Virus record (IMG/VR): IMGVR_UViG_3300028871_000005 | DNA: 46,842 bases | From: a virus | Strand: one strand, 5' to 3' | In this document: positions 15,853 to 16,656 of the stretch, in pieces | Layout: every line of letters starts with the position of its first letter | Numbering within the stretch: position 1 is the first letter of the stretch | Position numbers and translations under genes: made by a program | The notes under the pieces: generated by a model | What the model saw: the letters and a program-made list of their open reading frames with translations, nothing else | Told to the model about the DNA's origin: nothing | Database searches by the model: none

Positions 15853-16656
15853 ATGAGCATGAGCGAATACGTAGTAACGGAAGACTTGGCGCGCAAAGTC
15901 CTAGTGACTGTAGACGCGGGTCTTGTTTCAGGGATTGGCGAACCGACACCGGGATCGATGTGTGTCGAGGCTGCTGTTTGCTATGCGATGGGTTTGCCGC
16001 ATTCGGATCGTCCAACGTGTGTCGGTTCGGCGGTTCGCGCATTCAAAATTCGATTGAACGATTCACGCTGGTCTTCAAATGCGGCACGTACTTCTGGCAT
16101 GCGGAAGTTGGCTATCGCTCAGCTTGGCAGTGATGCCATCGACCAAAAAGCGTTTGCAAAGATTGTTGTTGAGAAGATCATTCGCCAGATCGTTCCGATT
16201 GCACTTCGCGCCGCCGCTAGTCGCAATCCTAAACATGCGGAAGCCTTGGAAGTCGCTGCGGTTCGTTGTGAAAACGAAGGAACGGGATCGGCGGCACGAA
16301 ATGCGCGTGATGTGGCTAGAGCCGCATACGCAGCCGCAGCCGCATACGCATACGCATACGCATACGCAGCCGCAGCCGCAGCCGCAGCCGCAGACGCATA
16401 CGCATACGCAGCCGCAGCCGCATACGCAGCCGCAGCCGCAGCCGCAGACGCATACGCATACGCATACGCAGCCGCAGCCGCAGCCGCAGCCGCAGACGCA
16501 GACGCAGACGCAGACGCAGACGCAGCCGCAGCCGCAGCTCGCGATAGCGTTTTTAACAAAACCGCAGAAATCGGACTAGCCGCACTTATCGAACTCAAGT
16601 CACCGGGTTGCGATTACCTATGGCTGACAGACCTCACCACCGAGACGGAGGCCTGA
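15853..16656 (+). CDS. Early protein with a globular N-domain and an (Ala/Tyr/Asp)-Ala dipeptide tract
   Basis: 267 aa with GGGAG upstream. It is the first gene after the early promoter and contains the 216-nt hexamer array. Confidence 0.7.
   Translation: MSMSEYVVTEDLARKVLVTVDAGLVSGIGEPTPGSMCVEAAVCYAMGLPHSDRPTCVGSAVRAFKIRLNDSRWSSNAARTSGMRKLAIAQLGSDAIDQKAFAKIVVEKIIRQIVPIALRAAASRNPKHAEALEVAAVRCENEGTGSAARNARDVARAAYAAAAAYAYAYAYAAAAAAAAADAYAYAAAAAYAAAAAAADAYAYAYAAAAAAAAADADADADADAAAAAARDSVFNKTAEIGLAALIELKSPGCDYLWLTDLTTETEA
16321..16536 (+). repeat. 36 tandem hexamers NNCGCA (18 GCCGCA, 11 TACGCA, 7 GACGCA)
   Basis: Counted by hand. Positions 3-6 (CGCA) are invariant in all units. The array is in frame. 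Confidence 0.95.

Follow-up and report, generated by a model that had tools for sequence, protein, structure and literature searches.

Evidence for rapid turnover of an in-frame Ala/Tyr/Asp repeat, the predicted arm of a large unnamed family of phage proteins

The repeat-bearing gene and its early-operon setting

Here we describe a repeat-bearing gene in the virus record IMGVR_UViG_3300028871_000005 of IMG/VR, a stretch of 46,842 nucleotides (nt) with a GC content of 57% that was analysed at its full length and is referred to throughout as the window, together with the protein family to which the gene product belongs. The open reading frame (ORF) spans 15853-16656 on the plus strand and encodes 267 amino acids (aa), comprising an N-terminal domain (N-domain), an alanine-rich tract reading AAYAAAAAYAYAYAYA...ADADADADADAAAAAA, and a 39-aa C-terminal tail. 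The tract, here termed the variable arm, is encoded on the plus strand at 16321-16536 by exactly 36 in-phase hexamers of the form [GCC/TAC/GAC]-GCA (unit string AYAAYYYYAAAADYYAAYAAADYYYAAAADDDDDAA), namely 18 GCCGCA, 11 TACGCA and 7 GACGCA. Hexamer positions 3-6 (CGCA) are invariant across all 36 units; the fixed alanine codon is GCA in 36 of 36 units and alanine at the variable position is GCC in 18 of 18, so that neither codon phase of the array displays synonymous drift. An initial annotation, made from the DNA letters without database searches, had reported 36 perfectly phased NNCGCA hexamers free of synonymous codon variation, and our recount returned identical numbers. Tandem Repeats Finder resolves the array into 36.5 copies of a period of 6 with an additional 48-nt super-period, which places it far beyond chance. 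The longest exact self-match within it is a 53-nt direct repeat at an offset of 102, with copies at 16346-16398 and 16448-16500, both on the plus strand. All six reading frames are open across 16321-16536, which accounts for shadow ORFs at 16079-16579 (plus strand) and 16119-16598 (minus strand); these are artefacts of the GCN repeat, the antisense frame of which is also an Ala-X repeat (AAAYAYAS...).

A Shine-Dalgarno-like sequence, GGAAGGGAG, at 15844-15852 abuts the first ATG and lies 6 nt ahead of the second, and in an identical contig from the ENA the gene is called from the second ATG. Based on this spacing and gene call, translation probably starts at 15859, giving a protein of 265 aa (15859-16656, plus strand), rather than at 15853 (267 aa); the ORF originally delimited at 15853-16656 does exist, and only its start is likely to move. 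In the resulting numbering the conserved N-domain comprises residues 1-154 (15859-16320, as delimited by alignment), the arm residues 155-226, and the conserved tail, RDSVFNKTAEIGLAALIELKSPGCDYLWL..., is encoded at 16537-16653, all on the plus strand. The division into domain, tract and tail that had been proposed initially is seen both in the translation and in family alignments.

Upstream of the gene, a hairpin resembling an intrinsic terminator (15726-15746, plus strand; an 8-bp stem with 6 GC pairs, then the T run TTTTACGTCT) appears to close the preceding lysogeny-side cassette. It is followed by two operator-like inverted repeats of the form ATTAGG-N5-CCTAAT identified through a motif scan of the window, one with a single mismatch (15768-15784, plus strand) and one perfect (15793-15809, plus strand). 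Four such sites occur in the window where 0.72 would be expected by chance, and the other two are located at the cro/repressor junction (13915 and 13973). Both repeats overlap a candidate plus-strand promoter consisting of TTGACA at 15783-15788, a 17-nt spacer and TAATCT at 15806-15811, whose -10 element, with matches at only 3 of 6 positions, kept it below the threshold of a strict promoter scan. Elsewhere the window encodes a Cro-family protein, NinB, Lar, AlpA, an integrase, a terminase, Baseplate_J and SLT, marking its phage context. Together the terminator, operators and candidate promoter argue that this is the first gene in the rightward early operon of a temperate phage, and we regard the ORF, from its sequence context, as a genuine early phage gene standing first behind a candidate repressor-operator-controlled promoter. 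This agrees with the initial placement of the gene directly behind an operator-controlled early promoter. The accompanying description of this location as the N-gene position holds for the position only, since the protein bears no likeness to lambda N, a small Arg-rich RNA-binding protein: neither an Arg-rich motif nor any family match was found in it. The gene is also first at a divergent junction in two other phages (L110 and L113), and a tblastn comparison of 19 neighbouring window proteins with 108 family loci identified no conserved neighbours.

The protein family and its predicted fold

A phmmer search of 1.84 billion representative sequences recovered homologues of the window protein in 1,633 clusters at 50% identity, all of them single-domain proteins of about 150-340 aa, while a search restricted to the N-domain yielded 1,456 homologues of 156-382 aa (E<=1e-3). 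Every sequence inspected is tripartite, consisting of a conserved N-domain, an Ala-rich low-complexity tract and a conserved tail. The N-domain carries the motif PGxMCVEAAVCYAxGLPHSDxPxCVG...FKIRLND..WSS and an invariant C137, the invariant residues also including C35, E37, C41, H48, D50, C54, R60, K63, N67, D68, W71, R77 and Q88; the tract follows at a fixed point after this domain and leads into a tail of the form RDxVLxxxAxIGLxALIxLKSPGC. The window protein, which is 60-83% identical to many family members, agrees with every invariant column of the N-domain and with the placement of the tract and the form of the tail. Arm length across the family was estimated at ~0 to 138 aa with a median of ~46, near-armless members such as P0103, P0158 and P0118 being rare. 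Homologues recruited through the N-domain thus carry tracts of differing length, a point that the initial annotation had proposed to check. N-terminal domain fusions in the longer family ORFs were considered and rejected, the upstream extensions being read-through of non-coding DNA.

Neither the whole protein nor its N-domain matched Pfam, PHROGs, NCBIfam or PADLOC, sequence and fold searches of the PDB returned no match, and a search of BFVD matched uncharacterised family members only. Likewise, the interval 13.5-19.5 kb had no megablast match among 50,697 phage records, an exact-flank search of the JGI metagenome and IMG/VR collections found no further copies of the window phage, the exact window protein was not found in a collection of 15 billion proteins, and literature searches on the family, DUF7666 and DUF6948 located no publication. 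Taken as a whole, the sequence comparisons point to a large phage family that is unnamed in any library searched. Most prophage copies belong to Alphaproteobacteria (including Devosia, Bradyrhizobium, Afipia, Hyphomicrobium and Reyranella), with further copies in metagenome-assembled genomes (MAGs) of other phyla and on a 295-kb contig resembling a jumbo phage.

Among 50,697 deposited phage genomes, only that of Caulobacter phage Cr30 carries a family gene, gp001 (AGS80886.1, hypothetical protein), which is the first coding sequence of KF301602 (positions 9-719) and the sole family member found in a cultured phage. Like the window protein, gp001 is uncharacterised, possesses the same N-domain (58.6% identity over 98 aa) and the same kind of C-terminal tail, and has a codon-homogeneous tract, (GCT/GAT/TAT)n, encoding AADAAYAAADAAY. 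It differs in that the period of this tract is about 3-7, with GCT codons and no hexamer or dipeptide design, and in that the gene is found at the end of the 156-kb genome of a lytic T4-like phage rather than in a temperate early operon. The best Foldseek match was the BFVD model A0A067XQQ9 (E 1.8e-12), which at 236 aa has the length of gp001 and is probably, if unverified, the model of that protein.

Compositional statistics were compiled for 93 distinct family tracts totalling 5,041 codons. Alanine accounts for 66.6% of residues, followed by Tyr (11.4%), Asp (9.9%), Ser (3.9%), Asn (2.7%) and Gly (0.6%), with Pro at 0%; the scarcity of Pro and Gly would be compatible with a helix. The best repeat period ranges from 2 to 11 across the family and is 2 in only 9 of the 93 tracts, indicating that the strict dipeptide period is a local feature of the window phage and not a family rule. 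A hexamer design like that of the window, built from other codons, was found in a Devosia prophage and in the contig pair L028/L029.

AlphaFold2, run on the window protein with a 67-sequence alignment, returned an all-helical model with a mean predicted local distance difference test score (pLDDT) of 90.1 and a predicted template modelling score of 0.82, the N-domain scoring 93-98. The tract is modelled as a helix (residues 143-186), a tip (187-194, pLDDT about 63, encoded on the plus strand at 16417-16440 near the array midpoint) and a second helix (195-245), after which the tail folds back and packs onto the N-domain. For the short-arm member P0043 the same globule was predicted (pLDDT 93.7), with the hairpin shrunk to a helix at 141-151, a loop and a helix at 160-180. 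That one globule is retained with both a long and a short hairpin suggests that the tract is an arm of variable length, inserted into a conserved fold at a fixed position, and on these models it is predicted to be an antiparallel helical hairpin projecting from the globule.

This prediction departs from the initial annotation, in which the strict dipeptide periodicity had been likened to silk-like beta-forming or low-complexity self-associating sequences and structure prediction had been recommended; the outcome of that prediction was a helical hairpin and not a beta structure. The corresponding alternative, that the X-Ala period forms a silk-like beta-sheet, an amyloid or a self-associating, condensate-forming segment, draws on the perfect period 2 of the window tract and on a Gly-Tyr/Gly-Asp tail of FUS-like composition encoded in the same operon. 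However, the helices predicted for both the window protein and P0043 are confident, Gly and Pro are nearly absent from the tracts, few tracts share the dipeptide period, and both tract ends are anchored in one globule, so that we consider such an assembly highly improbable.

Codon homogeneity and turnover of the arm

In family tracts the entropy of Ala codons is 0.40 bit, compared with 1.77 bit in the N-domains of the same genes, and C occupies the third base of 70% of tract codons versus 32% of N-domain codons. Essentially one Ala codon is used per lineage within tracts. Such homogeneity implies that the units within a tract share very recent ancestry, as expected from concerted evolution. 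At the same time, the same Ala/Tyr/Asp composition is built from GCC/TAC/GAC, GCT/TAT/GAT or GCG/TAT/GAT, depending on the lineage, and Tyr is the commonest non-Ala residue (577 codons) though it lies two substitutions from Ala, the residues one step from Ala being rare, with no Pro, 30 Gly, 65 Val and 66 Thr codons. The use of different codon sets to reach the same composition, together with the excess of Tyr over one-step neighbours, argues that composition has been selected at the protein level; from these sequence statistics, arm composition appears to be kept by such selection across the family, which in turn suggests that the arm is functional as protein.

These statistics bear directly on the alternative that the array is neutral repeat junk, a GCN-based repeat that drifts by slippage in a permissive surface loop, is merely tolerated, owes its composition to solubility limits and has no adaptive role. 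The near-armless members P0103, P0158 and P0118 indicate that the arm is unneeded for folding, periods and patterns are unconserved, and arm lengths spread smoothly from 0 to 138 aa, all of which a neutral repeat would produce. It would account less readily for the retention of the tract in nearly all of more than 1,600 clusters, for a shared composition (Ala far above similar shares of Tyr and Asp) reached with different codon sets, for the predominance of Tyr over every one-step neighbour, for paralogues that keep different arms within one genome, or for the absence of synonymous drift while non-synonymous variants abound. We judge neutrality unlikely, though still to be reckoned with.

Allelic differences in the arm were identified directly. 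ENA contig L001 (28 kb, assembled with MEGAHIT) matches window positions 8698-26656 (17.8 kb) with zero substitutions outside the array, and its sole difference from the window is the loss of 102 nt (17 hexamers) exactly between the two 53-nt direct repeats, of which it retains exactly one copy. Similarly, contigs L028 and L029, from two different metagenomes, are identical over 12.4 kb save for a 78-nt indel (13 hexamers) between 52-nt direct repeats. Paralogues on L077 (5917-6804 and 9191-10144), located 3.3 kb apart, have 100% identical N-domain DNA and arms that are wholly different in pattern and length; two family paralogues on L111 at 96% identity have unrelated arms, and all pairs at 96-97% N-domain identity have re-patterned arms. 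The presence of differently armed paralogues in two phages (L077 and L111) would be compatible with the arm setting specificity. Taken together with homologues of every tract length, the losses and gains in L001 and L028/L029 agree with the initial proposal of ongoing slippage or unequal recombination, and arm turnover driven by slippage or recombination is well supported by these sequence comparisons. The further expectation that a 6-nt unit would keep changes in frame is matched by the allele differences of 102 and 78 nt.

With regard to mechanism, the array strand is far less stably folded than shuffled controls (-18.2 versus -44.3 kcal/mol, z = +7.2), so that plain misalignment of identical units is likelier than hairpin-driven slippage, which is disfavoured. 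The model of a phase-variable on/off contingency locus, which calls for a unit not divisible by 3 so that slippage shifts the frame, does not apply, given the 6-nt unit and differences of 102 and 78 nt. As a separate observation, L052, L099 and L106 have the tract in another frame, resulting in poly-Leu or Pro/Thr-rich runs and loss of the conserved tail; these frameshifts may be indel sequencing errors (one is in a long-read MAG) or real alleles.

It could be argued that the array length in the window or the shorter L001 allele has been mis-assembled and that there is no real polymorphism at the locus, since L001 is a MEGAHIT k141 contig whose allele is what collapsing the array between its two longest internal repeats would give, and since about 23 of the 101 family loci break off at or within the tract end of the gene, a sign that assemblers struggle there. 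Against this, the final k of 141 exceeds the 53-nt repeat, arrays of this type are carried by a cultured phage, by a finished bacterial chromosome and by long-read MAGs, and relatives at 96-97% identity differ by complex re-patterning that collapse cannot yield; moreover, an artefact could touch only the exact unit count and not the existence of the array. We therefore regard an assembly origin of the polymorphism as very doubtful. Cultured Cr30, the finished chromosome of Devosia algicola and long-read MAGs all carry codon-homogeneous arrays, which are thus real rather than pure short-read artefacts. With around a fifth of family loci ending at the tract, the array nevertheless constitutes a systematic breakpoint for short-read assembly. 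Contigs that end inside the tract or at its start include L008, L021, L024, L025, L033, L035, L040 and L051, in addition to L058, L060, L063, L064, L090, L092, L094, L095 and others.

In the Ala-arm array and in a second one in the window (18334-18579, described below), variable codons switch only between G and T at position 1 and between C and A at position 2, all of these switches being G:C<->T:A transversions, while the products of transitions (Thr, Val and Asn) are rare. Third positions and the fixed codon never switch, however, so that mutational bias alone is insufficient to explain the codon pattern. A diversity-generating retroelement, or another dedicated hypermutation system yielding NNC codons, might be suspected given that the variable codons are of the form NNC with a fixed third base and cannot turn into stops, and that 71% of non-Ala tract codons in the family fall within the K-M-Y set. 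Yet no reverse transcriptase was found among the annotated or large ORFs of the window and no template copy of either array elsewhere in it, only chance matches of 10-16 nt; in addition, variation is not adenine-specific, and relatives differ by the gain and loss of units and not by substitutions. The retroelement was rejected on the lack of a reverse transcriptase and a template repeat within the window, and the chance that any such system is involved appears negligible.

Possible roles of the arm and related repeat systems

These findings suggest a scenario in which a conserved, Cys/His-bearing alpha-helical domain and the C-terminal helices form one globule, from a fixed point of which the Ala/Tyr/Asp tract would project as an antiparallel helical hairpin, repeat number setting its length. 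The DNA encoding the arm is an in-frame, codon-homogeneous microsatellite in which, as comparison with near-identical relatives shows, units are gained, lost and reshuffled far faster than point substitutions accrue; this would come about by misalignment of identical units, the probable molecular route being replication slippage or unequal recombination between internal direct repeats. Selection at the protein level appears to hold the composition at about two-thirds Ala, followed by Tyr and Asp, with Pro and Gly avoided. While the conserved domain would perform a constant biochemical job, the arm may serve as a quickly evolving protein-contact surface or spacer. The overall picture towards which we lean, with modest confidence, is that of a conserved early host-interaction protein bearing a helical contact arm that evolves fast. 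Its functional part, namely that this is the host-contact arm of a host-takeover or anti-defence protein, is the likeliest role that we can name, but we put it forward only tentatively, as possible rather than probable.

Several observations weigh against this picture. AlphaFold is prone to model poly-Ala as helix; at its tip the hairpin scores low in pLDDT and lacks turn-forming residues, so that it might in reality be a flexible or disordered loop; and the repeat periods of 2-11 mean that no fixed coiled-coil register is conserved across the family. In both single-indel pairs the shorter allele is an exact collapse between the longest internal repeats, which a short-read assembler could mimic. 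Finally, the identical-flank pairs L005/L006, L031/L032 and L111/L112 have identical arms, from which it follows that the arm evolves fast but is not unstable on every timescale.

A more ambitious extension is that the arm acts as an adaptive diversity generator, in which slippage would yield variants, differing in length and pattern, of a helical binding arm written in a minimal Ala/Tyr/Asp(/Ser) K-M-C code and so track variable host toxins or defence sensors. By analogy with Imm5, such an arm would be a reverse-transcriptase-free counterpart of diversity-generating retroelements, and this strategy would also take in the DUF6948 and Gly-(Tyr/Asp/Ser) module that shares the operon. We consider this quite unlikely as it stands. 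With regard to the code itself, Fellouse and Sidhu reportedly introduced in 2004 minimalist Tyr/Ser/Asp/Ala binding-site libraries based on the KMT codon, the 'four-amino-acid code' of synthetic antibodies. The variable codons of the window are K-M-C (GCC Ala, GAC Asp and TAC Tyr, with TCC Ser in relatives and in the second array) and, with two binary positions, specify the same four residues. The analogy is one of composition only, the natural tract being about two-thirds Ala and not known to be a binding element.

Among proteins, the closest analogy that we found is the Ala-rich helical arm of Imm5, Imm5_like and DUF7666. Imm5/Imm5_like (PF14423, PF21805) and DUF7666 (PF24703) are predicted immunity proteins of polymorphic toxin systems, and Imm5 has been proposed to act as a scaffold to which toxin domains of distinct structure can bind (Iyer 2011, PMC3239186; Zhang 2012, PMC3482391). 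Like the family described here, Imm5 and DUF7666 proteins are mostly alpha-helical and have a small N-domain, an Ala-rich tract with aromatic and acidic residues, and a short tail; in P0374 and P0375, Imm5 profiles score above the curated cut-off and cover the pre-arm helix as well as the Ala-rich arm, and DUF7666 paralogues with such arms adjoin Ala-arm paralogues on the jumbo-phage contig L111. The window protein did not match the Imm5 or Imm5_like Pfam profiles, 2 of 67 family members match Imm5 profiles below threshold (15-18 bits against a cut-off of 25), and hhalign of the family against DUF7666/Imm5_like gave a probability of 45% over 28 N-terminal columns only. Homology to DUF7666/Imm5_like was accordingly rejected at the sensitivity available, profile-profile comparison revealing no relationship. 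No toxin domain was found next to the family gene in the window or in the loci inspected, where the neighbours are phage early genes.

The closest described phenomenon appears to be the perfect in-frame tandem repeats (aaTRs) of Borgs. As described there (Schoelmerich 2023, PMC9879509), aaTRs are nucleotide-perfect repeats within ORFs with unit lengths divisible by 3, which evolve rapidly and arise independently, homologous proteins carrying repeats of similar amino-acid composition. The window array resembles aaTRs in its nucleotide-perfect, in-ORF units divisible by 3 and in its rapid evolution, its three unit variants differing at two positions. It differs from aaTRs in that the tract of the window family is predicted to be helical and resides in a cytoplasmic-looking phage early protein, and in that the Ala-arm is family-wide and located at a fixed insertion point, in contrast to the scattered new repeats of Borgs. 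On the Borg-style criterion of intrinsic disorder, AlphaFold2 gives helices with pLDDT 63-98, which is a prediction only.

If the arm is indeed a tunable contact surface, the family, which spans more than 1,600 clusters at 50% identity in phages of many bacterial phyla, would be among the largest uncharacterised phage protein families that carry a hypervariable element of their own and require no dedicated enzyme for it, and would represent a new route for phages to diversify a host-interaction protein. The family further offers a natural experiment in which the conserved domain anchors homology searches while the arm varies, and the cultured Cr30/Caulobacter crescentus system makes the question of the arm testable. 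For metagenomic phage genomes, arm lengths should not be trusted without long reads, because the tract breaks or collapses short-read assemblies. New in this study are the allele pair with identical flanks for the window phage, the junctions at direct repeats, codon statistics across the family, the model of a short-arm member and the comparison with Imm5/DUF7666.

A second repeat module is encoded in the same operon as the Ala-arm gene. It consists of a DUF6948 gene (17894-18172, plus strand) and an overlapping Gly-X gene (18169-18582, plus strand) that ends in 41 GGC-[TAC/GAC] hexamers at 18334-18579, among which are one TCC and a final TAT. From its sequence, the module (17894-18582) appears related to the Ala-arm array by a common variable-codon set, TCC/TAC/GAC (K-M-C). 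In L003 and L016 the Ala-arm gene is likewise followed, 1-3.5 kb downstream, by a DUF6948 and Gly-(Ser/Asp/Tyr) pair, and a Gly-X gene is present in L100. On L111 (295 kb, apparently a jumbo phage), the two Ala-arm paralogues at 7001-7723 and 13825-14478 are accompanied by three DUF7666/Imm5-like paralogues at 2062-2661, 4824-5462 and 11736-12335, which have Ala-rich DAANAAY arms with a 21-nt unit. Outside the early region, the structural/packaging region of the window contains a 611-aa ORF (43401-45239, minus strand) with an N-terminal NUDIX domain (E 2e-13).

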